Source: an uncultured Rhodospirillales bacterium (lineage in GTDB: Bacteria; Pseudomonadota; Alphaproteobacteria; CACIAM-22H2). From it: 64,000 nucleotides of DNA. Shown piece by piece: positions 29,105 to 46,522 of this stretch. Under the pieces are notes generated by a model, which saw nothing but the letters and a program-made list of their open reading frames with translations, did not search any database and was not told where the DNA came from. The DNA lies in contig CALANV010000018.1 in NCBI GenBank assembly GCA_937926175.1, positions 128,621 through 192,620 of the forward strand. The letters are read 5' to 3'. How positions within the stretch are numbered: position 1 is the stretch's first letter; the number at the start of each line of letters is the position of its first letter. The position numbers and the translations under genes were made by a program.

Positions 29105-29116
29105 GGGCGGGCGTTC

Positions 29117-30934: not shown

Positions 30935-31009
30935 TGGTGCCGCAGGAGGGATTTGAACCCCCGACCCGCGCATTACGAATGCGCTGCTCTACCCCTGAGC
31001 TACTGCGGC
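30935..31009 (-). tRNA. tRNA-Thr (anticodon CGU)
   Basis: Reverse complement: GCCGCAG-TA-GCTC-AGGGGTA-GAGC-A-GCGCA-TTCGTAA-TGCGC-GGGTC-GGGGG-TTCAAAT-CCCTC-CTGCGGC-A-CCA. This is a full cloverleaf with a 7-bp acceptor stem, a TTC T-loop, anticodon CGT and an encoded CCA. Confidence 0.9.
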
Positions 31010-31155
31010 ATGCCGTGGGCGGGCGGAAAGTAGTGCCAACCGCCCGGTATCGCAAGCGTCAGATTGATTTCAGATGGGAACGCCGCCCCGGCCCGGCCAG
31101 AGGCAGGGCAGAAACCGGTGCCGGCCGGCCCGGTCCCGGGCCCGGCGCGGCCATA

Positions 31156-31743: not shown

Positions 31744-31787
31744 TTCCCTTCCCCCTCGGGCCGCCGCCACCGACGGCTGCCCGTCAA

Positions 31788-31807
31788 ATGATATATTCAT
31801 ATAGCAT
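31788..31807. promoter_or_regulatory. AT-rich imperfect palindrome in a divergent promoter region (operator candidate)
   Basis: ATGATATATTCATATAGCAT matches its own reverse complement at 16 of 20 positions. It is the most AT-rich spot between the tautomerase-fusion gene (start 31743) and the GntR gene (start 31859). Confidence 0.3.
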
Positions 31808-31858
31808 TTAGACGTTTTGCCGTGCTAGCTTCACCGTAATCAGACCGGTGATCCGCCC

Positions 31859-32734
31859 GTGCCGAACGTCGTTCGTCACCCCGCCCGCACGCAGGCCCGC
31901 GCCACGACGCGCCAGCCGCCCGCGCATGCCGGTACGGCACCGTCGCGGCCCGGTCCCGCGGCCGCCGCGACGGTCGATCCGCGGCTGCCGACCCCGCTCT
32001 ATCACCAGATCTATGTCCTGCTGCGCGAGCAGATCCTCTCCGGCGTCTACGGCGACCAGGCGATGGTCCCGACCGAACAGGAGCTGAGCCGCCGCTTCGG
32101 CGTGTCACGCATCACGGCCAAGCGCGCGCTGGACGAGCTTGCGGCCGAAGGCCTGGTCGTGCGGCGGCGGGGTCGCGGCACGAGCGTCGCCGGGCCGCTG
32201 CCGACGCGCCCCTACAACGCCAATCTCTCGGGCCTGCTCGAGAACCTGCTGATGATGGGGCTCAAGACGTCGGTCGAGATCCTCGAATTCGGCTACGTCA
32301 CGGCCCCGGACGACGTGCGCAGCGCGCTTTGCCTCGCCCCGGGCGCGGAGGTGCAGCGCGCCGTCCGCGTCCGCTCGCTCGACGGCGAGCCGCTTTCCTA
32401 CACGACCAGCTTCGTTCCCGCCGAGATCGGCCGCGCCTACGACCGCAAGGATCTGGCGACGAGTCCGCTTCTCGCCCTGCTCGAGCGCGCGGGAATCCTG
32501 ATCGGCAGCGCCGACCAGACGATCACCGCCACGCTCGCCGACACGGTCGTCGCACCGCGCCTCGGCGTGCGCGTCGGCTCGCCGCTTCTGTCCATCACGC
32601 GAACGGTGTTCGACCAGAACGGCCGGCCGGTCGAATACATCAACCTGCTGTACCGGCCCGACCGCTACCAATACCGCATGAAGCTGACGCGCGTTCAGGG
32701 CGCCGCCACCAAGATGTGGTCGCAGGCGGAATGA
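31859..32734 (+). CDS. GntR family transcriptional regulator, HutC/UTRA subfamily
   Basis: Winged-helix motif PLYHQIYVLLREQILSGVYGDQAMVPTEQELSRRFGVSRITAKRALDELAAEGLVVRRRGRGTSV plus a UTRA-like C-terminal half. The GTG start at 31859 is uncertain (a Pro/Ala-rich leader of ~45 aa). Confidence 0.8.
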   Translation: MPNVVRHPARTQARATTRQPPAHAGTAPSRPGPAAAATVDPRLPTPLYHQIYVLLREQILSGVYGDQAMVPTEQELSRRFGVSRITAKRALDELAAEGLVVRRRGRGTSVAGPLPTRPYNANLSGLLENLLMMGLKTSVEILEFGYVTAPDDVRSALCLAPGAEVQRAVRVRSLDGEPLSYTTSFVPAEIGRAYDRKDLATSPLLALLERAGILIGSADQTITATLADTVVAPRLGVRVGSPLLSITRTVFDQNGRPVEYINLLYRPDRYQYRMKLTRVQGAATKMWSQAE

Positions 32735-32787
32735 CGCGCAGGACACGAGGACCGATCGAACAATCGATCGAACAGAGGAGGAAAGCA

Positions 32788-34026
32788 ATGATGCGAAGGA
32801 CGAAGACGAATGTGACGCGTCGCCAGCTGCTCGCCGGGGCCGCCGCCGGTGCCGCGATCGGCACGCTCGGATTTCCGGCCGTGCTGCGCGCGCAAGTGCC
32901 GAGCGTGAAGGTCGGCATCCTGCACCCGGTGACGGGAGCGATCAGCTATTCCGGCACGCAGTCGCGCGCCGGCGCGCTGATCGCGATCGAGGAGATCAAC
33001 GCGGCCGGCGGCATCAAGGCGCTCGGCGGGGCCAAGATCGAACCGTTGCTCGCCGACGCGCAGTCGCGTCCCGACGTCGGCGCCGCCGAGATCGAGAAGC
33101 TGAACGAGGCCGGCGCCGTCGCGGTCATCGGTCCCTATGCCAGCGCGATCGCGATCGCCACCACCGCCGCCGCCGCGAAGCACAACCTGCCGCATCTCGT
33201 CGACGTCGGCGTCGCCGACCAGGTCGTCACCCGGGGACTGACCAATACGTTCCGCTTCGCGCCCGGCCTTGCCAAGACGGTCGAGACCGCGATCAACAAC
33301 CTGGTCAAGCTGAACGAGGCGGCCGGCAAGCCGGTCAAGACGGTGATGATCATCCACGAGGAGTCGGCCTTCGGCTCCGGCATGGCCAGCACGCTCAACG
33401 CCGAACTGCCGAAGCACGGCTTCGAGATCGTGGAGACGATCAAGCACGCCAACCCGACGCGCGACTTCTCCAACATCGTGCTGCGCGTGCAGGCGCGCAA
33501 GCCCGACCTGATCATCCCGTCGAACTACTACAACGAATATGTCCTGTTCGCGCGCGCGCTGCGGCAGCAGCGCGTCCAGACCAAGGGCATCTATTCGATC
33601 CTCGGCGGCGGCGCCTCGAGCTACAAGTTCGTCAAGGAGTTCCCGGACGCGGCGGCCTACGTGATGGACTGCAATCACTGGTTCGATCCGCGCAAGGCGC
33701 AGGCGCTCGCCCTCAAGGACAAGGTCGAGAAGCAGGGCCTGTTCTTCACCTACGAGGTGTTCCTCAACTACTGCAACGTCTATCTGCTGGCCGATGCCCT
33801 GGAGCGCGCGGCGTCGACGAAGCGCGAGGACATCATCGCCGCGCTCGCGAGCAGCACGTGGGACAAGCACATCATGCCCTACGGGCCGACCAAGTTCGTC
33901 AACGGACAGAACGAGGGCGCCCAGCCGGTGAACACGCAGGTGCTGGACAACGACATCAAGGTGATCTTCCCGCTCGAGTTCGCCTCGGCGAACGCCGTGT
34001 TCCCGGTGCCCGAGCGGAAGGGCTGA
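32788..34026 (+). CDS. ABC transporter substrate-binding protein, Leu/Ile/Val-binding family, Tat-type signal
   Basis: ATG 32788 follows AGGAGGA. MMRRTKTNVTRRQLLAGAAAGAAIGTLGFPAVLRAQ is followed by VKVGILHPVTGAISYSG. Confidence 0.85.
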   Translation: MMRRTKTNVTRRQLLAGAAAGAAIGTLGFPAVLRAQVPSVKVGILHPVTGAISYSGTQSRAGALIAIEEINAAGGIKALGGAKIEPLLADAQSRPDVGAAEIEKLNEAGAVAVIGPYASAIAIATTAAAAKHNLPHLVDVGVADQVVTRGLTNTFRFAPGLAKTVETAINNLVKLNEAAGKPVKTVMIIHEESAFGSGMASTLNAELPKHGFEIVETIKHANPTRDFSNIVLRVQARKPDLIIPSNYYNEYVLFARALRQQRVQTKGIYSILGGGASSYKFVKEFPDAAAYVMDCNHWFDPRKAQALALKDKVEKQGLFFTYEVFLNYCNVYLLADALERAASTKREDIIAALASSTWDKHIMPYGPTKFVNGQNEGAQPVNTQVLDNDIKVIFPLEFASANAVFPVPERKG

Positions 34027-34100
34027 GTCCGTCCCGGCGTCGAGGCTCGTCCCCCGCCGCGGCGGCAGGGACGGGCCGAGGCGCCGCAAAGAATCCGCAC

Positions 34101-34976
34101 ATGCTCGAGCTCACGATCCTTCTTCCCGCGCTGATCAACGGCCTTACGCTCGGGGCCGTCTATGCCCTCGTCGCGCTGGGGCTGACGCTGATCTACGGCG
34201 TGCTGCACATCATCAACTTCGCCCACGGCAGCCTGCTGATGGCGGCGCTCTACGGCGTCTTCTTCCTGAACACCGGTCTCGGCATCGATCCCTACGCGGC
34301 GATCGTCGTCATGGTGCCGGCGCTGTTCGCCGCGGGCTACGTTCTGCAGCGCAGCGTGATCGGCAAGGCGAGCCACGGCAAGGACCAGAACGTGCTGCTG
34401 GTCACGCTCGGCATCGCGATCGTGATCGAGAACCTCGCGCTGGCGCTGTTCAGCGCCGACACGCGCACGATCGACACGCCCTATGCGTTCGAGATGGTCG
34501 ATCTGGGCATCGCCTTCGTGCCGCTGCCGCGGGTCATCGCCTTCATCGCAGCACTGGCGGTCACCGCCGTGCTCTGGTTCATCATCGCGCGCACGGACTT
34601 GGGCCGCGCCATCCGCGCCGTCGCCAAGGAGCGGCAGGGTGCGAGACTCGTCGGCATCGACGTCGACCACATCTTCGCCATGAGCTTCGGCATCGGCACG
34701 GCGTGCCTGGGGGCTGCGGCCTGTCTGCTGCTGCCGACCTTCTACGTGTCGCCGGGCGTGGGACACGTCTTCGTGCTGATCGCCTTCACCGTCGTCGTGC
34801 TGGGCGGCATGGGCAGCTTCGTCGGCGCGCTCGTCGGCGGATTCATCATCGGCGTCACCGAATCGCTCGGCGGCCTGCTCCTGGGCGAGTCGCTGGGCCA
34901 GATCGGGATCTTCCTGATCTTCATCGCCATCCTGCTGCTTCGCCCGACCGGCCTGTTCGGGAGCCGCCTGTCATGA
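34101..34976 (+). CDS. ABC permease (LivH family)
   Basis: In-frame ATG 34101 gives MLELTILLPALINGLTLGAVYALVALGLTLIYGVLHIINFAHGS. Confidence 0.85.
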   Translation: MLELTILLPALINGLTLGAVYALVALGLTLIYGVLHIINFAHGSLLMAALYGVFFLNTGLGIDPYAAIVVMVPALFAAGYVLQRSVIGKASHGKDQNVLLVTLGIAIVIENLALALFSADTRTIDTPYAFEMVDLGIAFVPLPRVIAFIAALAVTAVLWFIIARTDLGRAIRAVAKERQGARLVGIDVDHIFAMSFGIGTACLGAAACLLLPTFYVSPGVGHVFVLIAFTVVVLGGMGSFVGALVGGFIIGVTESLGGLLLGESLGQIGIFLIFIAILLLRPTGLFGSRLS

Positions 34977-35932
34977 CCGCCCGCACGGCATTCGCCGTCA
35001 TCGCCTTCGCCGCGGCGCTGATCGCGCCCTTCGTCGTGCACTCCGATTTCTGGATGGGGTTCCTGATCACGACGCTGCTCTATGCCTACATGGGCATGGC
35101 CTGGAACGTGCTGGGCGGCTATGCCGGCCAGGTCTCGTTCGGCCACGCGATCTTCTTCGGTACCGGCGCCTATACCTCGACCATCCTGCACATCTCGTTC
35201 GGCCTCAACCCCTGGCTGGGCATGGTCGCGGCGGCGGTCGCCGCCGGCCTCGTCGGCGCGCTGATCGGGTATCTGAGCTTCCGCTACGGGCTGAGGGGAT
35301 CCTATTTCGCGCTCATCACGCTCGCCTTCGCGGAAGTGTTCCGCATCCTCGCCAATTCGTTCGAGTTCACCGGCGGCGGCGTCGGCCTGTACGTGCCGCT
35401 CAAGATCGGCTGGTGGAACCTGCAGTTCCCGAGCAAGACCGGCTTCTATTACCTGGCGCTCGCGCTGACCTGCCTGTCGCTTGCGATCGGCGCCTGGCTC
35501 GAGAACTCGCGTTTCGGCGCCTCGCTCATGGCGATCCGCGAAAACGAGTCTGCCGCCGAGGCGCTCGGCGTCAACGCGTTCGCGTGCAAGCTGAAGGCCA
35601 TCATCCTGTCCGGCGCCATGATGGGTGTCGGCGGCACGTTCTATGCCCAGCACTATCTCTATATCGATCCGACCATCGCCTACGGACCCGGCGTCTCGGT
35701 CGAGGTCCTGCTCGTGCCGATCATCGGCGGGCTCGGGACGATGCTGGGACCGCTCTTGGGTTCGGCCGTGCTGCACGGAGCGGGCGAGCTCGCGCGCCGA
35801 CTGATGGGCGACGTGCCGGGGCTCGACCTCGTCTTCTACGGCGTTCTCCTGATCGTCATGGTGCGCTTCCTGCCCGAAGGCGTCATCGGCCTGTTGCGGC
35901 GGCGACACAAGCCGGGGGCGGCGCATGCTTGA
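34973..35932 (+). CDS. ABC permease (LivM family)
   Basis: ATGA overlap with the upstream gene. MTARTAFAVIAF...NVLGGYAGQVSFGHAIFFGTGAY. Confidence 0.85.
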   Translation: MTARTAFAVIAFAAALIAPFVVHSDFWMGFLITTLLYAYMGMAWNVLGGYAGQVSFGHAIFFGTGAYTSTILHISFGLNPWLGMVAAAVAAGLVGALIGYLSFRYGLRGSYFALITLAFAEVFRILANSFEFTGGGVGLYVPLKIGWWNLQFPSKTGFYYLALALTCLSLAIGAWLENSRFGASLMAIRENESAAEALGVNAFACKLKAIILSGAMMGVGGTFYAQHYLYIDPTIAYGPGVSVEVLLVPIIGGLGTMLGPLLGSAVLHGAGELARRLMGDVPGLDLVFYGVLLIVMVRFLPEGVIGLLRRRHKPGAAHA

Positions 35933-36667
35933 GGCGAAGGGACTCACCAAGCATTTCGGCGGGCTCGTCGCGGTGGCCGACGTGTCATTCAGCGTCCCGG
36001 AAGGGAAGATCGTCGCGCTGATCGGACCGAACGGTGCCGGCAAGACGACGCTATTCGCGATCATCGCCGGGTTCACGCAACCGGATGCCGGCCGCGTCAT
36101 GTTCCTGGGCCAGGACATCACCTTCATGGCCCCGCACCGTATCTGCGCGCTGGGCCTCGTGCGTACCTACCAGATCGTTCAGCCCTTCGGCGCGCTGACC
36201 GTGCGCGAGAACATCGCCGTCGGCGCCCATCTGCGCCTCAAGAGCCGCAAGGCCGCACTCGCATTTGCCGAAGAGGTGGCAAGGCAGGTCGGCATGGGGG
36301 ACGTCCTCGATCGGGCGGCGGCGGTGCTGACCGTTGCCGGACGCAAGCGGCTGGAACTCGCGCGGGCGCTGGCGACCCGCCCGAAGCTCCTGCTTCTCGA
36401 CGAGGTCATGGCCGGCCTCAACCCGACCGAGGTCGAAGAGATCGTTCAGGTGATCCGGGCGATCCGCGACTCCGGCGTCACGATCCTGCTGATCGAGCAC
36501 GTGATGCAGGCGGTAATGAGCCTGGCAGATCACGCCTATGTCCTGAACCAGGGACGCATCATCGCCGAAGGACATCCGCACGCGGTCGCCGAAATGCCGC
36601 ACGTGATCGAGGCGTATCTGGGACATGGCGCGGCGGCGCGTCTGCGCGCCCGCGCGGGCGGTGCCGC

Positions 36668-36671
<4 letters not shown>
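35925..36671 (+). CDS. ABC transporter ATP-binding protein (LivG-like)
   Basis: Walker A GPNGAGKTT, Walker B LLLLDEVMAG. 8-nt overlap with the upstream gene. Confidence 0.85.
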
Positions 36672-37378
<707 letters not shown>

Positions 37379-37381
37379 ACC

Positions 37382-38662
37382 ATGGGCATGACGCTTGCCG
37401 AGAAGATCATCGCGCGGGCGGCCGGACGATCCGAGGTCCGGCCGGGCGAGATCGTCACCTGCAAGGTCGATCTGGCGATGATGCACGATTCGGGCGGCCC
37501 GCGCCGCGTCGCGCCGATGCTGGAGTGGCTCGGCGCCAAGGTGTGGGATCCCAGCCGCGTCGTCGTCATCGCCGACCACTACGTTCCGGCGATCGATGCC
37601 GACAGCGCCGCGATCCTGAACCTGACGCGCAAGTGGGTGAAGAGCGCGGGCATCGAGTCGTTCTACGACATGCAGGGCATCTGCCACGTCGTGCTGCCGG
37701 AGCGCGGCCACGTGCGGCCCGGTCTCTTCGCGGTTGGCGGCGACTCCCATTCGCCGACCGCGGGCGCGTTCGGCTGCTTCATGTTCGGCATCGGCGCGAC
37801 CGAAATGGCGGGCGTGCTCGTCACCGGCGAAATCTGGGTCAAGGTGCCGGAAACCCATCTGGTGCGCTGGCACGGCCGGCTGCGGCACGGCGTCGTCGCC
37901 AAGGACATGATGCTGAAGATGTGCCGCGACATCGGACTTTCCACCGTGCGCTACGGCGTGGTGCAGTACACCGGCGATGCGATCGCCGCCCTGCCGATGG
38001 CCGAGCGCATGGTGCTGACCAACATGGCGGCCGAGCTCGGCGCGCAGACCGGCCTGATCGAGCCCGACGACGTGACCGTGCAGACGCTCCGCGACATCGG
38101 CGTCGATGCGCCCGATGCGCTCAGCTGGAAAAGCGACGCCGACGCGCGCTACGTCCGGACCTGGACGTTCGATGCGGATACACTCGAACCGCAGATCGCC
38201 GCCCCGCATTCGCCGGAAAATTCGGCCCCGGCCGCCGACTACGAGGGTGTCGCCATCGACCAGTGCTACATCGGCGCCTGCACGGGCGCCAAGCTCAGCG
38301 ATCTCCACATGGCGGCGGAAGTCCTGCGCGGCCGGAAGGTCGCGTCGACGACGCGCCTGCTGGTGGCGCCGGCATCGACGCGGATCACGGCGCAGGCGGC
38401 CGCGGACAGCACTCTCGCCACGCTGACCGAAGCGGGCGCGATCCTGCTGCCCAGCGGCTGTGGCGCCTGCGCCGGCCTCGGTGCCGGTCTTCTCGCGGAA
38501 AAGGAAGTGTGCCTGTCGTCGACGGCACGCAACTTCAAGGGACGCATGGGCGCCCATTCCGCGCTCGTCTATCTGGGCTCGCCCTACACGGTCGCGGCAT
38601 CGGCCGTCACCGGCCGGATCACCGATCCGCGCGTCATCCTGGCAGAAAGGGCAGCGGCATGA
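37382..38662 (+). CDS. aconitase-family dehydratase large subunit (LeuC/HacA/DmdA-like, ~420-aa short type)
   Basis: 426 aa. MHDSGGP, GGDSHSPTAG and the cluster cysteines in IGACTGAK and PSGCGACAGLG fit the [4Fe-4S] hydro-lyase pattern. Confidence 0.8.
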   Translation: MGMTLAEKIIARAAGRSEVRPGEIVTCKVDLAMMHDSGGPRRVAPMLEWLGAKVWDPSRVVVIADHYVPAIDADSAAILNLTRKWVKSAGIESFYDMQGICHVVLPERGHVRPGLFAVGGDSHSPTAGAFGCFMFGIGATEMAGVLVTGEIWVKVPETHLVRWHGRLRHGVVAKDMMLKMCRDIGLSTVRYGVVQYTGDAIAALPMAERMVLTNMAAELGAQTGLIEPDDVTVQTLRDIGVDAPDALSWKSDADARYVRTWTFDADTLEPQIAAPHSPENSAPAADYEGVAIDQCYIGACTGAKLSDLHMAAEVLRGRKVASTTRLLVAPASTRITAQAAADSTLATLTEAGAILLPSGCGACAGLGAGLLAEKEVCLSSTARNFKGRMGAHSALVYLGSPYTVAASAVTGRITDPRVILAERAAA

Positions 38663-39162
38663 CGACGACCGACGGCGGCCGCGCCTTCGTCTTCGGCGAC
38701 AATGTCGACACCGACACGCTGGCGCCCGGCCTCTACATGAAGCGGCCGATCGAGGAGATGGCGAGTCACTGCCTGGAGGCGCTGGATCCGACCTTCGCCA
38801 AGACCGTGCGGCCCGGCGACATCGTGGTCGGCGGCGAGAATTTCGGCATGGGATCGTCGCGCGAGCAGGCGGCGATGGCGCTGCGTCATCTCGGCGTCGC
38901 CGCCGTCGTGGCCAAGAGCTTCGCGGGGCTGTTCTTCCGCAACGCGCTGAATCTCGGCCTCGTCGCCCTGGTCTGCCCGGCGGCGGACAGAATCCGGCCC
39001 GGCGACCGCCTGTCCGTCGACGCCGAAGCGGGGCGCATCACCAACCTGACCACCGGCGAGACCTATGCGTGCGAGCCGATCCCGCCGCATCTCGTCGAAA
39101 TGATCCGCGACGGTGGACTGCTCCCGCATCTGAAGAAGAAGCTGAAGAAGAAATCGGTATGA
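38659..39162 (+). CDS. aconitase-family dehydratase small subunit (LeuD/DmdB-like)
   Basis: ATGA overlap. 167 aa with FGDNVDTDTLAPG and GENFGMGSSREQA motifs. Confidence 0.8.
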   Translation: MTTTDGGRAFVFGDNVDTDTLAPGLYMKRPIEEMASHCLEALDPTFAKTVRPGDIVVGGENFGMGSSREQAAMALRHLGVAAVVAKSFAGLFFRNALNLGLVALVCPAADRIRPGDRLSVDAEAGRITNLTTGETYACEPIPPHLVEMIRDGGLLPHLKKKLKKKSV

Positions 39163-40031
39163 CGACCCTGCGCGAACTGCTCGAGGGGCCGGAGATCGTC
39201 GTGGCCCCCGGCGTCTATGACGGCCTGACGGCGATCCTGGCCGAGCAGGCCGGCTTCGGCGCGATCTACCTGTCGGGAGCAAGCGTGTGCTATGCGCGCG
39301 CGCTGCCCGACATCGGCCTCGTGTCGATGGCCGAAGTCGCGGACGTCCTCGGCATGGTGCGGGAGCGCACGACGATTCCGGTGATCGTCGACATCGACAC
39401 CGGTTTCGGCAACGCTCTCAACGTCCGCCGGACCGTACAGGTGTTCGAGCGGCGCGGCGCCTCGGCGCTTCAGCTCGAGGACCAGATCACGCCGAAACGC
39501 TGCGGCCACCTCAAGGACAAGGCGCTGATCTCGACGGCGGAGATGATCGGCAAGATCAAGGCGGCGGTCGACGCGCGCGCCTCGCGCGACACGCTGCTGA
39601 TCGCCCGCACCGATGCGATCGCCGTCGAAGGCTTCGCGGCCGCGCTCGATCGCGCCGAGGCCTATGCCGAGGCCGGGGCCGACGTGCTGTTCATCGAGGC
39701 GCCGCGCGACCGCACCGAGCTCGTCGCCATCGCGAAACGGTTCCGCGACCGCGTGCCGGTGATGGCCAACATGGTCGAGGGCGGCGTGACGCCGATCCTC
39801 TCGGCCGCCGAGCTTCAGGCGCTGGGCTTCCAACTCGTGATCTTCCCGGGCGGGACGGTGCGGGCGCTCGCCTTCGCCCTCAGGGAATACTTCGCGATGC
39901 TCAAGACGCACGGCACCACGACGCCGTTCCGCGACCGCATGCTCGACTTTGCGGCGCTCAACCAGCTGCTCGATACCGACGGATTTCTTGCGCGCGGCAA
40001 ACGGTTCGACCCGACGGAGGCGGCCCGATGA
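39159..40031 (+). CDS. isocitrate lyase/PEP mutase superfamily lyase (methylisocitrate lyase / 2,3-dimethylmalate lyase-like)
   Basis: ATGA overlap. 290 aa with DIDTGFGN and the lyase-type LEDQITPKRCGH motif. Confidence 0.8.
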   Translation: MTTLRELLEGPEIVVAPGVYDGLTAILAEQAGFGAIYLSGASVCYARALPDIGLVSMAEVADVLGMVRERTTIPVIVDIDTGFGNALNVRRTVQVFERRGASALQLEDQITPKRCGHLKDKALISTAEMIGKIKAAVDARASRDTLLIARTDAIAVEGFAAALDRAEAYAEAGADVLFIEAPRDRTELVAIAKRFRDRVPVMANMVEGGVTPILSAAELQALGFQLVIFPGGTVRALAFALREYFAMLKTHGTTTPFRDRMLDFAALNQLLDTDGFLARGKRFDPTEAAR

Positions 40032-41758
40032 TCGATCCCGTCACTCTCGCGGTCCTCAAGGGCCGGCTGGAACAGATCGCCGACGAAATGGACGCGACGC
40101 TGTTCCGGTCCGCCTTCAACCCGATCATCGCCGAGGCGCACGACGCCTCGCACGGCATCTACGATGCGGTGACCGGCGATACGCTGGTTCAGGGCAAGTT
40201 CGGGCTGCCGATCTTCGTCGGCGTCATGGCGTTCGCCGTCAAGGCGACCATCGACAAGGCGGCACGCGACGGCGATCTCGCCGACGGCGACGTCTATCTG
40301 TTCAACGATCCCTACGACGGTGGCACGCATCTTTCCGACTTCAAGCTCGTCCGGCCGTTCTTCCACCAGGGACGCCTGTTCTGCTGGCTCGCCTCGGTCG
40401 GCCACTGGCACGACGTCGGCGGCAATGTGCCCGGCAACTACAACCCGATCGCGACCGAAAGCCATCAGGAGGGCATGCACATTCCGCCCGTGCGGCTGGT
40501 GCGGCGCGGCGTTCTCAACGGCGACATCGTCGAGATCCTGAAGGCGAATTCGCGCCTACCGCTGTCGCTCTACGGCGATCTCAACGGACAGCTCAACGCG
40601 CTCGACCTGGGCGCGCGGCGTCTCGCCGAGCTTCTCGCCGATTACGGCGCCGACACGGTCGCCGAGGCCCTGCGCGAGCTGCGCGCGCGCGGGGCGCAAC
40701 TGATGCGCGCCAACATCGCCGAGCTTCCGGACGGCACCTATTCGGCCGAAGACTTTCTCGACAACGACGGCATCGACGACGTCCCGCTGAAGATCGCGCT
40801 CGACGTCACCATCCGCGGGCAGGAGATGACGCTCGACTTCTCGCGCTCGGCGCCGGCGTGCCTGGGGCCGGTCAACATCGCGCGGTCCACCGCGATCGCG
40901 AGCTGTTACGTCGCCCTCAAGCACGTGTTCCGGGACGTGCCGGCCAATGCCGGCTGCCTGGAGCCGATCCGGTTCGTCATCCCCGAGACGTCGATCCTGT
41001 CGGCGAAGGCGCCGAAGCCGGTCGGTGGCTATACCGAGACGATCCTGCGCGTGATCGACGTCGTCTTTCAGGCACTGGCCCAGGCCGCGCCCGATCGCGT
41101 CAACGGCTGTGCCTACGGCACCATCAACGCGCTGTCCCTGGCCGGCCACCGTCGCGACGGACGGCGCTGGGTGATGTTCTCGTTCTTCGGCGGCGGACTG
41201 GGCGGCAACCCCGAAGGCGACGGCCTCAATCATGGCAACGCGCCGATCTCGACCGCGACCATCCCGCCGCTCGAAATCCTCGAGGCGGCCTATCCGGTCA
41301 TGTTCACGCGCTGGGCGCTCCGGCCCGACAGTGCCGGCCCGGGACGGCATCGCGGCGGGTTGGGCGCGATCTACGAGATCGAACTCCTGGAAGAGGAGGC
41401 CGACGTCTTCGTGTTCGGCGAGCGCGGCAAGTTCCCACCCGCCGGCGTGATCGGCGGCGGTCCGGGTGCCCTCAACCGCTTCACCTATCAGCAAGGCGAC
41501 GACTTCAAGACGCCGCCGATGGTCTCGAAGATGGTCGGCATCAAGATCAGGCGCGGCGAGCGGGTACGGCTGGAGACGCCGGGCGGGGGCGGCTACGGCC
41601 CGCCTCTGGCGCGCGCCCCCGAAGACGTCGCCCGCGACGTGCGGCAAGGCTATGTGAGCCCCGAGGCGGCGCGGCGCGACTACGGCGTCGTCGTCGATGC
41701 GGACGGCCGAATTGACATGGCCGCCACGGCCATGCTGCGCCGGAGGGCGGCGGAATGA
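40028..41758 (+). CDS. hydantoinase B/oxoprolinase family protein (HyuB-like)
   Basis: ATGA overlap. 576 aa. MIDPVTLAVLKGRLEQIADEMDATLFRSAFNPIIAEAHDAS is the typical HyuB N-terminus. Confidence 0.85.
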   Translation: MIDPVTLAVLKGRLEQIADEMDATLFRSAFNPIIAEAHDASHGIYDAVTGDTLVQGKFGLPIFVGVMAFAVKATIDKAARDGDLADGDVYLFNDPYDGGTHLSDFKLVRPFFHQGRLFCWLASVGHWHDVGGNVPGNYNPIATESHQEGMHIPPVRLVRRGVLNGDIVEILKANSRLPLSLYGDLNGQLNALDLGARRLAELLADYGADTVAEALRELRARGAQLMRANIAELPDGTYSAEDFLDNDGIDDVPLKIALDVTIRGQEMTLDFSRSAPACLGPVNIARSTAIASCYVALKHVFRDVPANAGCLEPIRFVIPETSILSAKAPKPVGGYTETILRVIDVVFQALAQAAPDRVNGCAYGTINALSLAGHRRDGRRWVMFSFFGGGLGGNPEGDGLNHGNAPISTATIPPLEILEAAYPVMFTRWALRPDSAGPGRHRGGLGAIYEIELLEEEADVFVFGERGKFPPAGVIGGGPGALNRFTYQQGDDFKTPPMVSKMVGIKIRRGERVRLETPGGGGYGPPLARAPEDVARDVRQGYVSPEAARRDYGVVVDADGRIDMAATAMLRRRAAE

Positions 41759-43824
41759 GCACCAGGCCTACGACCGTCGTCGGCGTGGACGTCGGCGGCA
41801 CCTTCACGGACCTTTTCTTCTATGACGAGGCGTCGGGCGCGGCACGCACCCACAAGGTGCCTTCCACGCGCGGCGACCAGTCGCTCGGGTTCCTCGACGG
41901 AATCGCCGCCGGGCTCGCCAACGGCAAGCCGGCCGATTTCCGTTCGCTCGCCGCCGTCATCCACGGCACGACGGTCGGCACCAATGCGCTCTTGGAGCGC
42001 AAGGGAGCGACGACCGGCATCATCACGACGGAAGGATTCCGCGACGTGCTGGAGATGCGCCGGCGCGACCGGCGGCAGACCTGGGGCCTGTGGGGCGACT
42101 TCGTCCCGGTGGTGCCGCGCGACCTGCGCCTCGAGGTCCGGGAGCGTACGCTCGCCGACGGCACGGTTCGCATTCCCGTCGACACCGACGAGGTCAAGCG
42201 CGCCGCGCGCGAGCTGCTCGCCCGCGGCGCCGAGGCCGTCGCCGTCTTCTTCATCAACGCCTATGCGAACGCGGCGAACGAGCGTGCGGCGCTGGCCGCG
42301 CTGCGCGAGGTGTGGCCGAATCCGTTCATCACCGCCTCGAGCGAGATCCTGCCCGAGATCCGCGAGTTCGAGCGCTGCTCGACCGCAACGCTGAACGCGT
42401 ATCTGCAGCCGGTCGTCGCGAAATACATCAGGTCGCTCGACGAGCGTCTGAGCCAAGCGGGAAGCACGGGCACACTCCTGATCGTGCAGTCGAACGGCGG
42501 CGTGATGACCGTCGATACGGCGGCACGGCTGCCCATCCGCACCGCGCTGTCCGGCCCCGCGGCGGGCGTGATCGCGGCCGCGCACATCGCGGAAAGCGCC
42601 GGGTTTCCCAACGTCATCACCGGCGACATGGGCGGGACCAGCTTCGACGTGGCGCTGATCGCTGGCGGCCGCTCGGTCCTGTCGGCGCAGACGACGATCG
42701 ATTTCGGCATGGTCGTGCGCACGCCGATGATCGAGATCACGACGATCGGCGCCGGCGGCGGCTCGATTGCCGGCGTGGATCGCGGCGGGCTGCTGCAGGT
42801 GGGCCCCGAGTCCGCCGGCTCCGATCCCGGACCCGCCGCCTACGGCAAGGGACAGACGCGCCCGACCGTCACCGACGCGAACATCGTGCTCGGCCGGATC
42901 AACGCCGAGCGCCCGATCGGCGGCAAGCTCGCGCGGCTCGACGTCGAGGCCGCGCGCGAGGCGATCGCGGCGCATGTCGCAAAGCCGCTGGGGCTCGACG
43001 TCATGCAGGCCGCCGAGGCCATCATCCGCGTCGCCAACTCGCGCATGGCCGGCGCCATCCGGCTGGTGTCGATCGAGCGGGGTCACGATCCCAAGCGCTT
43101 CGCGCTGATGCCGTTCGGCGGCGCCGGTGCGCTCCATGCCGGCGCGTTGATGAAGGAGGTCGGTCTCGCCTCGACGATCGTACCGCGCTATCCCGGCGTC
43201 ACGTCGGCGCTCGGCTGCGTCATCGCCGACATGCGCCACGACTTCGTCCAGACGATCAACCGGCCGCTCGACGACCTCGACTGCGCGGCGCTCGGCGCCG
43301 CGATCATGGCGATCTCGGCCGAGGGGCGCGACTTCGTCACGCGCGGCGCGGTCAAGCTCGACGGGCTCGCGACGGTGGTCGAACTCGACATGTGCTATGT
43401 CGGACAGACCCACACGGTGTCGGTGCCGCTGACGATCGGGGCCGACGGCGTCATCGACGCCAGCACCATCCGCCAGGCGTTCGAAGCCACCTACCGCACG
43501 GCGTTCGGCCGCCTGCTCGAGGGTGTGCCGCTGCGCGTGCTGAGCCTGCGCGTGGCCGCCATCGGCCGGCGGCCGAAATTCGATCTGGCCATTCTGGCCC
43601 CCGGTACCGGCACGCTCGCCGCCGCCGAACGCGGCGAGCGCACCGTGTGGTTCGACGGCCGCCCGCACACGACGCGGATCTATGACCGCCTCGCCCTTCC
43701 GGTCGGCGCCGAGATTCCCGGCCCGGCCATCCTCGAGCAGCCCGATGCGACGACGTGGATCGATCCCGACCTGACGGGGCGCGTCGACCGCTTCGGCAAC
43801 CTCATCCTGACGCGGAAGCCATGA
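41755..43824 (+). CDS. hydantoinase A/oxoprolinase family protein (HyuA-like)
   Basis: ATGA overlap. 689 aa with VGVDVGGTFTDLFFYD (ASKHA ATPase phosphate-1 motif) and DMGGTSFDV. Confidence 0.85.
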   Translation: MSTRPTTVVGVDVGGTFTDLFFYDEASGAARTHKVPSTRGDQSLGFLDGIAAGLANGKPADFRSLAAVIHGTTVGTNALLERKGATTGIITTEGFRDVLEMRRRDRRQTWGLWGDFVPVVPRDLRLEVRERTLADGTVRIPVDTDEVKRAARELLARGAEAVAVFFINAYANAANERAALAALREVWPNPFITASSEILPEIREFERCSTATLNAYLQPVVAKYIRSLDERLSQAGSTGTLLIVQSNGGVMTVDTAARLPIRTALSGPAAGVIAAAHIAESAGFPNVITGDMGGTSFDVALIAGGRSVLSAQTTIDFGMVVRTPMIEITTIGAGGGSIAGVDRGGLLQVGPESAGSDPGPAAYGKGQTRPTVTDANIVLGRINAERPIGGKLARLDVEAAREAIAAHVAKPLGLDVMQAAEAIIRVANSRMAGAIRLVSIERGHDPKRFALMPFGGAGALHAGALMKEVGLASTIVPRYPGVTSALGCVIADMRHDFVQTINRPLDDLDCAALGAAIMAISAEGRDFVTRGAVKLDGLATVVELDMCYVGQTHTVSVPLTIGADGVIDASTIRQAFEATYRTAFGRLLEGVPLRVLSLRVAAIGRRPKFDLAILAPGTGTLAAAERGERTVWFDGRPHTTRIYDRLALPVGAEIPGPAILEQPDATTWIDPDLTGRVDRFGNLILTRKP

Positions 43825-44432
43825 CCGATATCCGCTTCACGCCGGCGACGACGGCGCTCGTCCTCGTCGACCTGCAGAACGACTTCCTGCATCCGAACGG
43901 CGCCTATGGCCGTGCCGGCCAGACCGCGCCTGCGATCGCCGCTTTGCCGCAGCGCCTCAAGCCGGTCGCGGACGCGGTGCGGCGCGCCGGCGGATGGATC
44001 GTCGCCACCCAGTTCACCCTCGTGCCCGGCAAGAACGGTGCGCCGATGATCTCGCCGCATCTCAAGAAGCTGCGGCCGTTTCTGACAATGGGCGATTTCG
44101 CGCCGGGGTCGTTCGGACACGATCTGGTCGACGAACTCAAGCCCGCAGACCTGATGGTCGAGAAGGTCGCCTATTCGGCCTTCTACATGAGCCGGCTCGA
44201 ATTCGTGCTGCGCAGGGCCGGCATCGAGACGCTCGTCTTCGCCGGGATCGTGACCAATGGCGGCGTCGCCTCGACGCTTCGCGATGCGCATGTACGCGAC
44301 TTCGCGACCGTGCTGCTGTCCGACGGCTGTGCCGCCTTCAGCGAGAAGGTGCACGAGACGACCGTCGCCGCGCTGGCCGCGATCTCGCCGGTCATGACCT
44401 GTGCCGAGTTCACCGCCGCCATTTCGGCATGA
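43821..44432 (+). CDS. isochorismatase-family hydrolase lacking the canonical nucleophilic Cys
   Basis: ATGA overlap. 203 aa. The Asp (LVLVDLQNDF) and Lys (VEKVAYSAF) positions are retained. The usual T-N-x-C-V motif reads T-N-G-G-V (GIVTNGGVASTLRDA; the Gly codon at the Cys position is 44262..44264). Confidence 0.75.
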   Translation: MTDIRFTPATTALVLVDLQNDFLHPNGAYGRAGQTAPAIAALPQRLKPVADAVRRAGGWIVATQFTLVPGKNGAPMISPHLKKLRPFLTMGDFAPGSFGHDLVDELKPADLMVEKVAYSAFYMSRLEFVLRRAGIETLVFAGIVTNGGVASTLRDAHVRDFATVLLSDGCAAFSEKVHETTVAALAAISPVMTCAEFTAAISA

Positions 44433-45838
44433 CGATCCTCGACGCGTCCGACGCCAGGTTCGAAGCCGCCTTTCCGGTCGTGATCGTCGGCGCGGGTGCC
44501 GCCGGCCTCACGGCGGCGCTGGCGGCGCGCGAGGCCGGGGCCGACGTCCTGGTCCTCGAACGCGATCCGGTCCCGCAGGGCTCGACCGCGCTGTCGTCCG
44601 GGCTGATTCCGGCCGCGGGCACGACATTCCAGCACGCCAAGGGAGTCGACGACAGTCCGGCGACATTCGCCCGCGACATTCAGAACAAGGCAAAGGGGCA
44701 GGCCGATCCGACGCTCGTGGATCTCCTGACGCGCCATGCGGGCCCGACGGTCGACTGGCTTGCCGCCAGCTACGGCGTGCCGTTCACCCTGATCGAGGGT
44801 TTCCTCTATCCCGGGCACAGCGTGCCGCGCATGCACGGCACGCCGCGGCGAACCGGAAGCGAGCTGATGCAGTTTCTGGCCGCGGCGGCATCAGGCGCGG
44901 GCGCCGAGATCGTGACGTCGGCGCATGTCGATGCGCTCTATGCCGACAGCAACGGATCCGTCGCCGGAGTGCGCATCCGCCGGCCCGACGGTTCGGTCGA
45001 AGCGGTCGGGTGCACCGCGCTCGTGCTCGCCTGCAACGGCTTCGGCGGCAACGCGGCGATGGTCCGGCACTACATTCCCGAGATGGCCGACGCGCTGTTC
45101 TTCGGCCATACTGGGAACCAGGGTGAAGGCATCGCCTGGGGCATGGCGCTCGGCGCGGCGGTGCGGCACATGGGAGCCTATCAAGGGCATGGGTCGGTCG
45201 CGACGCCCTACAACGTGCTCATCACCTGGGCGCTGATGATGGAAGGCGGCATCCAGGTCAATGCGCACGGCAAGCGCTTCTCCAACGAACACCAGGGCTA
45301 TTCCGAGCAGGCGATGGCGGTGCTGGCCCAGCCCGGCGGCGTCGCCTACAATATCTATGACGCACGGCTGCATGCGTTGGGCGTCGCGTTCGAGGACTAC
45401 CGGCAGGCCGTCGAGGCCGGCGCGATCAAGTCGGCGGAAACGATCGAGGCGCTTGCCGTCGCGCTGGGCCTGCCGCCGGCCGCACTTGCCGCCACGATCG
45501 ACGAAACGCGCCGGTTCGCGGCGGGATCGGCCGCCGATCCGTTCGGCCGCGAATTCATGTCGAAGCCGCCGCTCGCCGCGCCGTTTTACGGCGTCAAGGT
45601 GACGGGCGCGCTGTTCCATACGCAGGGCGGCCTCGTCGTCGACGCCGACGCACGGGTCTGCCGTACGGACGGCACGACCCTGCCGAACCTGTTCGCCGCC
45701 GGCGGCACGGCCTGCGGCGTCTCCGGCCCGACGGCCTCGGGCTATCTCTCCGGCAACGGCCTGCTGTCGGCGGTGACGCTGGGGCGGATTGCCGGCCGGG
45801 CAGCGGCGAAATTGCACACCGGCGCGGGCGAGCTATAA
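44429..45838 (+). CDS. FAD-dependent oxidoreductase, fumarate reductase/succinate dehydrogenase flavoprotein-like (FAD_binding_2; TcuA/KstD-like)
   Basis: ATGA overlap. 469 aa. Dinucleotide fold VVIVGAGAAGLTAALAAREAGADVLVLER and C-terminal LPNLFAAGGTACGVSG. Confidence 0.8.
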   Translation: MTILDASDARFEAAFPVVIVGAGAAGLTAALAAREAGADVLVLERDPVPQGSTALSSGLIPAAGTTFQHAKGVDDSPATFARDIQNKAKGQADPTLVDLLTRHAGPTVDWLAASYGVPFTLIEGFLYPGHSVPRMHGTPRRTGSELMQFLAAAASGAGAEIVTSAHVDALYADSNGSVAGVRIRRPDGSVEAVGCTALVLACNGFGGNAAMVRHYIPEMADALFFGHTGNQGEGIAWGMALGAAVRHMGAYQGHGSVATPYNVLITWALMMEGGIQVNAHGKRFSNEHQGYSEQAMAVLAQPGGVAYNIYDARLHALGVAFEDYRQAVEAGAIKSAETIEALAVALGLPPAALAATIDETRRFAAGSAADPFGREFMSKPPLAAPFYGVKVTGALFHTQGGLVVDADARVCRTDGTTLPNLFAAGGTACGVSGPTASGYLSGNGLLSAVTLGRIAGRAAAKLHTGAGEL

Positions 45839-45872
45839 CCGAAGGGTCGCAACCAGCCAGACGGTGAACGGA

Positions 45873-46508
45873 ATGCGGCTCTATTACTCGCCCGGCGCGT
45901 GCTCGCTCGCCGCCCACATCGCACTCGAGGATACTGGCACGCCGTTCGAGGTCGAATGCGTGTCGACAGCCGAGGGAGCGCACAAGAGGCCCGAATACCT
46001 CGCCATCAATCCCAAGGGCCGCGTACCGGCATTGGTCGACGGCGATTTCATCCTGACGGAACTCGTCGCGATCCTCTGCTACATCGCGCATGCGGTGCCA
46101 TCGGCCGACCTGATCCCGCTTCCCGGCAGCCGCGACCATGCGCGCGCGCTCGAATGGCTCTCGTGGCTTTCCAACACCGTGCATCCGGCATATGCGCAGA
46201 TCCGGCGGCCCGAGCGCTATGTCGCCGACGAGCGCGACTATCCGCCGGTCATCGAAAAGGGACGCATGAACCTGCGCGACAACTTCCGCATGATCGAGGA
46301 AAAGCTTCGCGACCGGACCTTTGCGCTGGGCGAGCGCTACTCGGTCGTCGATCCGTTCCTGCTCGTCCTCTACAACTGGGGCTGCGGCAAGTTCGCCGGC
46401 CTCGACATGCGCAACGATTTCCCGGCCTGGACCATGCATTTCGAGCGCATGAAGACCCGTCCCGCCGTGCAACGCGCGGTCGCGCGCGAGGGGATCACGC
46501 TTGCCTGA
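45873..46508 (+). CDS. glutathione S-transferase
   Basis: ATG 45873 gives MRLYYSPGACSLAAHIALEDTG...INPKGRVPALV, a typical GST N-terminal domain. 211 aa. Confidence 0.85.
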   Translation: MRLYYSPGACSLAAHIALEDTGTPFEVECVSTAEGAHKRPEYLAINPKGRVPALVDGDFILTELVAILCYIAHAVPSADLIPLPGSRDHARALEWLSWLSNTVHPAYAQIRRPERYVADERDYPPVIEKGRMNLRDNFRMIEEKLRDRTFALGERYSVVDPFLLVLYNWGCGKFAGLDMRNDFPAWTMHFERMKTRPAVQRAVAREGITLA

Positions 46509-46522
46509 CCGCGCAGGCGGCT

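Follow-up and report, generated by a model that had tools for sequence, protein, structure and literature searches.

Which compound is taken up and degraded by the operon at positions 31859-45838 of the DNA presented above, a stretch of 64,000 nucleotides (nt) from an uncultured Rhodospirillales bacterium (contig CALANV010000018.1; hereafter 'the window', ∼68% G+C)? The interval is filled by 13 co-directional open reading frames (ORFs) on the plus strand, encoding a GntR-type regulator, an ATP-binding cassette (ABC) importer of the Liv type and a series of catabolic enzymes. Genome comparison indicates that the cluster is one functional unit, real and widely conserved. It is read here as a GntR-controlled system for the uptake and catabolism of a carboxylate-bearing cyclic amide or imide, ending in pyruvate and probably glutarate, a reading to which a rough probability of 0.45 is given. 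A previous sequence-only reading of this DNA had proposed ring opening, desaturation, LeuCD-type hydration and cleavage to pyruvate plus an acid. This logic fits the comparative and residue evidence described below. The genes concerned are as follows.

31859-32734, plus strand: GntR/UTRA regulator, HutC subfamily, with winged helix and UTRA effector domain (Pfam GntR and UTRA)
32788-34026, plus strand: periplasmic binding protein, Liv type (Pfam Peripla_BP_6)
34101-34976, plus strand: ABC permease, LivH type (Pfam BPD_transp_2)
34973-35932, plus strand: ABC permease, LivM type (Pfam BPD_transp_2)
35925-36671, plus strand: ABC ATPase, LivG type (Pfam ABC_tran and BCA_ABC_TP_C)
36668-37378, plus strand: ABC ATPase, LivF type (Pfam ABC_tran)
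37382-38662, plus strand: large subunit of an Fe-S hydratase of the aconitase family, archaeal LeuC/HacA type (NCBIfam NF001614, TIGR01343)
38659-39162, plus strand: hydratase small subunit (Aconitase_C), LeuD/HacB/DmdB type (TIGR02087)
39159-40031, plus strand: C-C lyase of the PEP_mutase/isocitrate lyase (ICL) superfamily, PrpB/Dml-like (prpB model, PrpB alignment)
40028-41758, plus strand: Hydantoinase_B, B subunit of an ATP-dependent hydantoinase/oxoprolinase, HyuB (Pfam Hydantoinase_B, 577 bits)
41755-43824, plus strand: Hydantoinase_A, ATP-binding A subunit, HyuA (Pfam Hydant_A_N, Hydantoinase_A and Hydant_A_C; 310 bits)
43821-44432, plus strand: isochorismatase-fold hydrolase without the nucleophilic Cys (Pfam, RutB alignment)
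44429-45838, plus strand: soluble FAD_binding_2 flavoprotein (Pfam, alignments)
31156-31743, minus strand: fusion of a tautomerase of the 4-oxalocrotonate tautomerase (4-OT) type, with Pro-1, and a SnoaL/NTF2-like domain, divergent from the regulator (Pfam Tautomerase and SnoaL_2)

Gaps occur at only three junctions (53 nt between regulator and binding protein, 74 nt between binding protein and LivH, 3 nt between LivF and the LeuC-like subunit). The remaining junctions are 4-8 nt overlaps of the ATGA type, consistent with translational coupling. The sequence-only reading had described a one-strand operon with a maximal gap of ∼75 nt after the regulator, in agreement with the 74 nt measured, and its motif-level identifications are upheld: searches with Pfam and NCBIfam profiles support every domain call for the 13 products. 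The HyuB frame is the one ending at 41758, an overlapping ORF at 39949-41715 having no Pfam match. None of the cluster enzymes reaches an equivalog cut-off of the curated NCBIfam models (release 20), and none has a specific model there. In RefSeq the hydratase genes are called leuC and leuD, and the other enzymes have generic names.

One functional unit in many genomes

Searching one genome per species with the lyase as query gave at least 501 related stretches; the best 80 loci were taken with 10 kb flanks. Window proteins were mapped onto the fetched loci by tblastn and 49 full-length loci were counted. Presence of the lyase in 49/49 is uninformative, the lyase being the query. HyuB and HyuA are found in 43 of the 49, the LeuC-type hydratase gene in 42, the isochorismatase-like gene in 41, the flavoprotein gene in 38, the GntR regulator in 35 and the tautomerase-SnoaL gene in 32. 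The complete set (lyase, HyuB, HyuA, isochorismatase-like and LeuC-type genes) is present in 37/49. Among these 37 loci, 34 have the flavoprotein, 33 the GntR regulator and 32 the tautomerase-SnoaL gene, and in every one of them (37/37) the HyuB, HyuA and isochorismatase-like genes are contiguous in that order. The sequence-only reading had named a lack of co-conservation elsewhere as what would speak against it; the genes are strongly co-conserved.

The cluster is spread over many Alphaproteobacteria and some Beta- and Gammaproteobacteria, with soil, rhizosphere and marine Alphaproteobacteria as hosts. Sulfitobacter pontiacus DSM 110277, Azospirillum oryzae KACC 14407, Stappia indica, Tistrella mobilis and Seohaeicola saemankumensis are carriers that can be cultured. 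The loci follow at least three gene orders and differ in transporter (two types) and in hydratase (two pairs that are not orthologous). In type A (the window, Stappia, Hoeflea, Roseibium limicola, Ferrovibrio and Geminicoccaceae), a divergent tautomerase-SnoaL gene precedes the order regulator, ABC system, hydratase, lyase, HyuBA, isochorismatase-like protein, flavoprotein. In type B (many Rhodobacterales, Cohaesibacter; a RefSeq-annotated example is a Sulfitobacter pontiacus plasmid), one strand carries a tripartite ATP-independent periplasmic (TRAP) transporter DctPQM, a bacterial-type leuDC pair and the regulator. The opposite strand carries tautomerase-SnoaL as the first gene, followed by HyuB, HyuA, isochorismatase-like protein, lyase and flavoprotein. 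Type C (Azospirillum) has a bacterial-type leuCD pair at the operon end. The hydratase large subunits of types A and B share only 35% identity. Two hydratase branches and two uptake systems thus fill the same roles, which argues for a selected pathway and against a chance neighbourhood. Judged from these loci, functions are conserved and not genes alone, since different solutions occupy the same roles. The isochorismatase-like protein has ∼8000 homologues at E < 1e-20, of which the top 120 are all 76-100% identical.

A more distant related cluster lies on Haloferax volcanii pHV4 (L090, 566984-592225), adjoining hutU. It retains the flavoprotein (44% identity), the type-A LeuC and LeuD (40% and 51%), a Liv-type ABC system and an NTF2 protein homologous to the SnoaL domain (35% identity). 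A dihydropyrimidinase-like amidohydrolase and a Cys-containing isochorismatase-fold protein occur instead of HyuAB and the Cys-less enzyme, and a CaiB-type CoA-transferase with an enzyme resembling 3-hydroxy-3-methylglutaryl-CoA (HMG-CoA) lyase instead of the lyase. Extra genes are two of the PrpD family and one for an LLM-class oxidoreductase; the Roseomonas cluster also carries PrpD-family gene(s). The gene combination had not been recognised as a characterised pathway in the sequence-only reading. In agreement with this, the searchable full-text literature holds no paper on it; a paper outside that literature, for example with the structure 9MUA discussed below, is conceivable.

Several variant loci differ in their accessory genes. 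In a type-A variant (L001, 10603-12598; also L002), a gene of the Amdase/Asp-Glu-racemase family and an FAD_binding_3 monooxygenase gene stand instead of the flavoprotein gene. In L047 and L070, too, Amdase-family genes are found near the lyase, accompanied by genes of the PrpD family and for GMC oxidoreductases. In L067 and L053, the LeuCD-lyase and glutaryl-CoA dehydrogenase genes are accompanied by a different isochorismatase-fold gene, two polysaccharide-deacetylase-family genes, a methyltransferase and an FAD_binding_4 protein, with no HyuAB. This variant may be a parallel upper pathway into the same lower module. On a Paraburkholderia plasmid (L086), whose cluster copy is without the flavoprotein, the 'hypothetical' gene at 16856-17590 directly after the cluster matches an ISNCY-family transposase model (292 bits).

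The hydratase-lyase module

The KRCGH motif noted in the sequence-only reading is located at residues 113-117 of the lyase (K113-R114-C115-G116-H117). By sequence the enzyme is closest to PrpB (200 bits to solved PrpB structures, 172 bits to fungal Dml, 3FA3), and it scores below the cut-offs of the prpB model TIGR02317 (299.5 bits, cut-off 354.4) and of NF008455 (239.6 versus 353). It retains the catalytic and Mg residues of Escherichia coli PrpB (Y43, S45, D58, D85, D87, E115, K121, C123, H125, R158, E188, N210 and R241). The PrpB pocket F186/L234/P236 is kept as F178/I228/P230. We take this pocket to hold the methyl group of pyruvate; in isocitrate lyases it is presumably filled by bulkier residues. 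With both the catalytic set and the methyl pocket kept, pyruvate is the expected lyase product, and the pocket points to pyruvate over glyoxylate.

Other positions have changed relative to PrpB: T212 to V206, R270 to F264, F214 to G and L237-S238 to G-G. In PrpB, T212 and R270 presumably bind the distal carboxylate of succinate. Their loss, and the enlargement of the pocket by Gly, suggest that the second acid is larger than succinate or different from it. These lyase residues are invariant in 50 orthologues, and an invariant Asp263 adjoins the replaced Arg270 position (F264). The sequence-only reading had proposed cleavage to pyruvate or glyoxylate plus a short acid. The PrpB-type methyl pocket keeps the first of these products and disfavours the second, and gene linkage (see below) brings in glutarate as the other acid.

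The hydratase large subunit scores above cut-off with NF001614 (534 bits) and TIGR01343, hacA_fam (472 bits), matches that are at subfamily level (aconitase/isopropylmalate dehydratase large subunit, hacA_fam); no equivalog is reached. The cysteine ligands of the Fe-S cluster, C300, C360 and C363, are all present. The small subunit exceeds the cut-off of TIGR02087 (LeuD/DmdB family; 182 bits). Its specificity loop reads Y-M-K, versus YLRT (Y-L-R) in Methanocaldococcus jannaschii HacB and YLVY (Y-L-V) in LeuD (3VBA and 2PKP alignments). All type-A orthologues seen hold Lys or Arg at this loop position. In HacB the basic position is occupied by Arg26, which we take to read the extra carboxylate of the substrate. 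The basic residue in the loop hints at an anionic substrate side chain, as in homoaconitate.

Linkage to glutarate metabolism

What could the second product be? On pTM2 of Tistrella mobilis the gene order is regulator, HyuB, HyuA, isochorismatase-like protein, acyl-CoA dehydrogenase, CaiB-type CoA-transferase, leuC and leuD. The dehydrogenase scores 620 bits to human glutaryl-CoA dehydrogenase. The CoA-transferase matches the succinate-glutarate CoA-transferase model far better than any other, its 533 bits staying under the cut-off of 750. The idea that these two enzymes substitute for the flavoprotein was rejected, as they are a glutaryl-CoA dehydrogenase and a glutarate-type CoA-transferase.

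Orthologues of the Tistrella dehydrogenase (67-69% identity) begin at the end of the flavoprotein gene in L022, L026, L073 and L082, four type-B loci that belong to different families; two of them have the CoA-transferase next. Further orthologues stand beside the LeuCD-lyase genes of L053 and L067. Altogether, glutaryl-CoA dehydrogenase is found in seven of ∼85 loci, at four distinct positions; L060 has the transferase alone. By our own estimate, a single-copy gene lies within 10 kb of a given locus by chance in well under 1% of genomes, so that this frequency represents strong enrichment. Taken with the lyase pocket, the linkage suggests that the second product is most probably glutarate.

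Probable enzymes of ring opening and nitrogen release

HyuA scores 527 bits against the CapA model and HyuB 340 bits against the CapB model (cut-offs 1000 each). For both, the match to acetophenone carboxylase subunits is weaker than that to these caprolactamase models (320 and 144 bits). The adjacent isochorismatase-like protein scores 88 bits against the RutB model (cut-off 378). Aligned with RutB and a Streptomyces homologue, it reads TNGGV where RutB has TNVCV, so that Gly147 occupies the position of the nucleophilic Cys of the amidases. The sequence-only reading had called the protein Cys-less, and the replacement proves general: Asp17, Lys115 and Gly147 are invariant in 42/42 orthologues, together with much of the surrounding active-site sequence. 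An invariant Asp and Lys with Gly always in place of Cys fit a hydrolase that needs no thiol nucleophile. From these residue patterns, the protein has a conserved catalytic site without a thiol and is not a decayed gene.

Flavoprotein and tautomerase-SnoaL fusion

The sequence-only reading had described the flavoprotein as FrdA/TcuA-like. Profile scores are below cut-off for TcuA (NF006130, 180 bits, cut-off 369; TIGR02485, 126 bits, cut-off 373) and for the flavocytochrome c subfamily (266 bits, cut-off 285). Of the residues compared with Shewanella flavocytochrome c3, only His365 (H254) and Thr377 (T266) are kept, and Glu378, Arg381, Arg402, His504 and Arg545 are replaced by W267, M270, Y291, F396 and Y439. 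In 34 flavoprotein orthologues the Tyr, Trp and Phe replacements are essentially invariant, and the Arg381 position holds Met or Ile. Tyr at the Arg402 and Arg545 positions is common to the window protein, its Haloferax and Sulfitobacter orthologues and a PGAP-annotated Deinococcus TcuA (a single TcuA sequence); a Pantoea flavocytochrome c of the fumarate-reductase type retains both Arg. The TcuA-like half of the earlier description is therefore kept, by virtue of the two shared Tyr, and the FrdA-like half is abandoned, as the catalytic Arg and the carboxylate-binding His and Arg are replaced. In its active site, the flavoprotein resembles the oxidative tricarballylate dehydrogenase type and not fumarate or urocanate reductase. 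A Pfam scan of the cluster products revealed no TcuB-like gene. A ketosteroid-dehydrogenase-like Tyr/Tyr site acting on the intact ring is possible, but was dropped as the primary reading since TcuA shares both Tyr.

The ORF of the tautomerase-SnoaL protein spans 31156-31800 (minus strand), but its true start is the Met-Pro at 31743, residue 20 of the ORF. This Met-Pro is invariant in 31/31 orthologues, so that Pro-1 is retained, and the Pfam Tautomerase domain covers the first 56 residues of the protein. An orthologue of ∼60% identity has been solved (PDB 9MUA/9MUP, 186 residues; E 2e-63), named only 'Tautomerase', and no publication on these entries was found in the searchable literature. 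By its conservation across the loci, the tautomerase-SnoaL gene is the fourteenth member of the set, overlooked in the sequence-only reading.

A proposed route and the points against it

The substrate would enter through the Liv-type ABC system, or through TRAP transporters in other genomes. HyuAB would open the ring amide bond at the cost of ATP to give a half-amide, from which the Cys-less isochorismatase-fold enzyme would free the nitrogen by acid/base or substrate-assisted hydrolysis, leaving a saturated branched tricarboxylate. This triacid would be desaturated by the TcuA-like flavoprotein, and the tautomerase-SnoaL enzyme would set the double bond as the cis (maleate-type) isomer. The LeuCD/HacAB-type Fe-S hydratase would then add water. 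Finally, the PrpB/Dml-like lyase would split the 2-hydroxy-2-methyl acid into pyruvate and a carboxylic acid, most probably glutarate. On this scheme the lyase would act on 2-hydroxy-2-methyl-3-(2-carboxyethyl)succinate and the hydratase on 2-methyl-cis-homoaconitate. The latter fits a hydratase of the HacA family, the basic loop residue and a TcuA-like dehydrogenase acting on a saturated triacid. Glutarate would be processed further by glutarate CoA-transferase and glutaryl-CoA dehydrogenase, which some genomes encode in the cluster. The scheme would amount to the sequence tricarballylate to cis-aconitate to isocitrate to glyoxylate plus succinate, one carbon longer and methylated.

Which ring could enter such a route? 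When the propionate-bearing rings of heme, bilins and chlorophyll are oxidized, hematinic-acid-type imides are the common terminal products. That these monopyrrole imides, i.e. 3-(2-carboxyethyl)-4-methyl-maleimide and its dihydro form, are the substrate class is a speculation and, as a specific assignment, rather unlikely. Once the ring is opened and the amide nitrogen removed, 2-methyl-3-(2-carboxyethyl)succinate or the corresponding maleate would result. Flavoprotein and tautomerase-SnoaL would lead to 2-methyl-cis-homoaconitate, and hydratase and lyase to pyruvate and glutarate. Dialkylmaleamic acids undergo very fast carboxylate-assisted hydrolysis, which could explain why the second hydrolase has lost its Cys. 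Speculative as it is, this is the sole natural compound class we could think of whose skeleton meets all constraints, and the data do not contradict this skeleton.

A number of points weigh against the route. What is observed is gene content, co-conservation and residue patterns, and every pathway step is inferred from these. The window is without glutaryl-CoA dehydrogenase and most loci have no nearby copy; the glutarate linkage could stem from a side branch that yields glutarate, or from a lactam on the lysine/5-aminovalerate route. In the lyase, no residues were identified for the distal carboxylate of the carboxyethyl side chain, and the invariant Asp263 beside the replaced Arg270 would better suit a cationic group. 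Hydrolysis of imides normally needs no ATP. We know of no precedent for a Cys-less amidase in the isochorismatase fold, the known Cys-less members of which hydrolyse vinyl ethers; substrate assistance in the hydrolysis of a maleamic or succinamic acid is a speculative answer. Some clusters that are otherwise complete (Paraburkholderia, Tistrella, L001, L047, L072 and L083) lack the flavoprotein and the tautomerase-SnoaL protein, making the order and necessity of the desaturation and isomerization steps uncertain. Moreover, the cluster encodes no TcuB-like electron-acceptor partner.

Alternative explanations

A DmdAB/Dml-type module acting on a simple dialkylmaleate (dimethylmaleate, citraconate), giving pyruvate and propionate or acetate with the glutarate genes unrelated, would account for the family pairing seen in Eubacterium barkeri, a LeuD/DmdB small subunit with a KRCGH lyase that has a hydrophobic non-succinate pocket. 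It would also account for the CoA-transferase and HMG-CoA-lyase-like enzyme of Haloferax, as for citramalyl-CoA. Yet it is unlikely in view of the glutaryl-CoA dehydrogenase linked in seven loci at four distinct positions, of TRAP uptake in many genomes, which implies a free carboxylate on the imported ring, and of a lyase pocket that is enlarged and not merely hydrophobic. Glutarate is retained as end product in a pyridone (6-hydroxynicotinate-type) catabolism in the manner of Azorhizobium, whose 6-hydroxynicotinate route ends in glutarate. Here the flavoprotein would reduce the ring to a tetrahydro-oxo-pyridine carboxylate and HyuAB would open the lactam. The Cys-less enzyme would then hydrolyse the enamine to 2-formylglutarate and ammonia, and the tautomerase domain would decarboxylate or tautomerize the product; Pro-1 tautomerases include malonate-semialdehyde decarboxylases. 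Linkage of glutaryl-CoA dehydrogenase to the cluster agrees with this scheme, a Cys-less isochorismatase fold suits vinylogous (enamine or enol-ether) hydrolysis, and in L001 an FAD_binding_3 monooxygenase and a maleate-isomerase-family gene follow the isochorismatase-like gene. But the lyase would have no role, nor would the Fe-S hydratase present in 42/49 full-length loci, the flavoprotein bears the TcuA-type Tyr and not the Arg proton donor of reductases, and no molybdenum hydroxylase is found among the conserved neighbours; this scheme is distinctly unlikely.

The ring could also be a true lactam whose nitrogen stays on the skeleton to the end: ATP-dependent HyuAB enzymes typically act on lactams with an unfavourable hydrolysis (5-oxoproline, valerolactam, caprolactam), and the closest models are CapA and CapB. 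A 2-methyl-3-(aminoalkyl)maleate, formed by desaturation and ring opening, would be hydrated and cleaved to pyruvate and an omega-amino acid (beta-alanine, γ-aminobutyric acid or 5-aminovalerate, the last of which would feed glutarate), in keeping with a lyase that has no succinate-binding Arg and an invariant Asp beside that position. Such a pathway seems improbable nonetheless: neither the isochorismatase-fold enzyme nor the tautomerase would have an obvious task in it, the conserved neighbours include no aminotransferase and no semialdehyde dehydrogenase, and the dihydropyrimidinase-like hydrolase and Cys amidase of Haloferax follow an imidase plus half-amidase logic. An aromatic lactam (oxindole-3-acetate, dioxindole-3-acetate), opened to (2-aminophenyl)succinate or the malate, desaturated, hydrated and cleaved, is a very unlikely substrate. 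HyuAB-like enzymes do open the oxindole ring in anaerobic indoleacetate degradation, the hosts are rich in plant- and alga-associated genera and the C3 pocket of the lyase is hydrophobic and enlarged. However, no further genes for aromatic-ring degradation are conserved with the cluster, and neither the glutarate-gene linkage nor the conserved methyl pocket would be explained. The context of the anaerobic indoleacetate pathway is given in PMC8360864. Lastly, the RefSeq names, leuC and leuD for the hydratase genes and generic ones otherwise, would suit a chance juxtaposition of a transporter, leucine-type isomerase genes and a hydantoinase cluster; translational coupling across the enzyme genes and co-conservation over at least three gene orders and two domains of life make this scarcely credible. 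Homarine catabolism was considered and rejected, since the published hom operon (homABCDER) is made of other families (a flavin oxygenase pair, a peptidase and an aldehyde dehydrogenase).

Comparison with known systems and significance

The cyclic amide or imide route proposed above can be set beside several characterized systems. As with DmdAB/Dml of E. barkeri, compared by family and motif, genes for a two-subunit archaeal-type aconitase-family hydratase adjoin that for a KRCGH PEP-mutase/ICL lyase (37382-40031), and the pocket is suited to a 2-methyl (pyruvate-forming) substrate with a group other than carboxymethyl at C3. Unlike there, neither the window cluster nor its conserved neighbours include a 6-hydroxynicotinate reductase, an enamidase, a B12 mutase or a methylitaconate isomerase, and the second product is probably glutarate, not propionate. 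The tricarballylate route also combines a soluble FAD_binding_2 dehydrogenase with Tyr at the Arg402 and Arg545 positions, aconitase-family hydration and ICL-family cleavage. Here, by contrast, TcuB and TcuC are missing, and the operon has its own dedicated hydratase and lyase, the latter of the pyruvate-forming type. With the end of the methylcitrate cycle (PrpD, aconitase, PrpB) the cluster shares a lyase closest to PrpB, with catalytic residues and methyl pocket kept; it differs in that the lyase falls under the PrpB cut-off with T212 and R270 replaced, and in having no methylcitrate synthase.

Comparable pairs exist for the upper steps. In the creatinine pathway, N-methylhydantoinase HyuAB and N-carbamoylsarcosine amidase likewise are a ring hydrolase followed by an isochorismatase-fold hydrolase. 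In the present cluster the two are always adjacent, the nucleophilic Cys is Gly in 42/42 orthologues, and a carbon-skeleton cleavage module lies downstream in place of sarcosine oxidation. The cyclic-imide pathway of Blastobacter uses an imidase and a half-amidase. The proposed logic, ring imide to half-amide to dicarboxylate, is like that of this pathway and of NicF (maleamate amidohydrolase), and Haloferax has the matching enzyme pair. The bacterial clusters differ in their ATP-dependent opener and Cys-less second hydrolase, and in a product that does not go straight to the tricarboxylic acid cycle. Like CapAB and 5-oxoprolinase-type lactamases, the cluster has both Hydantoinase_A and Hydantoinase_B subunits, with scores below the CapA and CapB cut-offs. 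The Asp-Lys-Cys triad of the Cys amidohydrolases RutB, NicF, CSHase and BiuH is incomplete in the isochorismatase-like protein, with Gly147 for Cys. As in the true isochorismatases EntB and PhzD, Asp and Lys are kept with Gly at the amidase Cys position, a Gly that PhzD presumably also has; but the sequence is nearer to RutB and to biuret-hydrolase-type amidases, and there is no siderophore or phenazine context. The tautomerase-SnoaL protein resembles 4-oxalocrotonate tautomerase in having Pro-1 on a beta-alpha-beta unit of roughly 60 residues and departs from canonical 4-OT in its SnoaL/NTF2 fusion.

The operon is thus of a familiar catabolic type built from known families, but its combination of genes and its active-site features are undescribed. 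The cluster is widespread (at least 501 loci, plus a haloarchaeal cousin), yet none of its enzymes has an assigned substrate. Solving it would provide a new catabolic pathway for a widespread natural nitrogen heterocycle, a function for an isochorismatase-fold hydrolase working without the usual Cys, a function for a tautomerase-NTF2 fusion that already has a crystal structure, and a homoaconitate-type counterpart of the methylcitrate and tricarballylate routes. Should the substrate indeed be a tetrapyrrole breakdown product, this would also close a gap in how the carbon and nitrogen of chlorophyll and heme are turned over.

Regulation and uptake

Two sequence elements near the regulator and one gene beyond the flavoprotein complete the feature list.

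31786-31809, no strand assigned: candidate GntR operator palindrome (read from the sequence)
32753-32774, plus strand: direct repeat CGATCGAACA-AT-CGATCGAACA before the ribosome-binding site of the binding-protein gene (read from the sequence)
45873-46508, plus strand: glutathione-S-transferase (GST)-like gene (Pfam GST_N and GST_C)

Every NCBIfam match of the GntR regulator is below cut-off. The intergenic region between the divergent tautomerase-SnoaL and regulator genes measures 115 nt and contains the AT-rich palindrome AAATGATATAT-TC-ATATAGCATTT at 31786-31809. Its core, ATGATATATTCATATAGCAT, is also found 5′ of the regulator in L004 and in Tistrella (L087), and a variant differing by 1-3 bases in L008 and L047. 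The core thus recurs in loci whose proteins are only 65-75% identical, Tistrella included. Type-B and type-C loci have TGTAT-N8-ATACA at the equivalent position. When both strands of 1.09 Mb of loci were searched with the two patterns, about 26/28 and 12/14 matches were 5′ of the regulator. The palindrome at 31786-31809 is likely the GntR operator, as predicted from this recurrence, and a better candidate than the direct repeat.

The 10-nt direct repeat CGATCGAACA pointed out in the sequence-only reading does exist at 32753 and 32765, ahead of the ribosome-binding site of the binding-protein gene, but as a conserved regulatory element it fails. It is retained only in the near-identical L004 and in 0/13 other orthologous upstream regions, for which reason it was rejected as operator. 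The 10-mer moreover occurs five times on the plus strand of the window (609, 11882, 32753, 32765 and 59123), against 0.43 expected from shuffles. With retention limited to L004 and the 10-mer over-represented in the window, the repeat is real but, by these comparisons, gives no sign of a conserved function. Scans for promoters and terminators gave nothing over background, and an Rfam scan of 30500-47600 detected no riboswitch or leader, its only element being a tRNA-Thr.

As for uptake, the Liv-type binding protein has Arg-Arg in its N-terminus, and in other arrangements TRAP DctPQM takes the place of the ABC system. Solved structures of binding-protein relatives offer no usable clue to the ligand: the best match of the Liv-type protein reaches merely 123 bits and that of the TRAP protein, 4MNC, 165 bits.

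Neighbouring genes

The GST-like gene begins 35 nt past the flavoprotein stop and is present only in the window and in the near-identical locus L004 of a metagenome-assembled genome. This marks it as a probable passenger specific to the lineage, which may close the transcript. Running convergently to the operon, a gene of the short-chain dehydrogenase/reductase (SDR) family lies at 46523-47401 (minus strand). A 74% identical copy is located a few kb 3′ of the cluster in L003 (14914-15699), and further SDR genes border the clusters of L047, L070 and the Sulfitobacter plasmid; the SDR gene may be loosely associated with the cluster. On the other side, the tRNA-Thr (anticodon CGT; Rfam 70 bits, ARAGORN) is at 30935-31009 (minus strand), 147 nt past the 3′ end of the tautomerase-SnoaL gene. 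Farther out, the upstream flank has two glycosyltransferase genes within 27983-30157 (minus strand) and the downstream flank a gene for the E1 component of a thiamine-dependent dehydrogenase at 48448-49467 (plus strand), both seemingly unrelated to the cluster.

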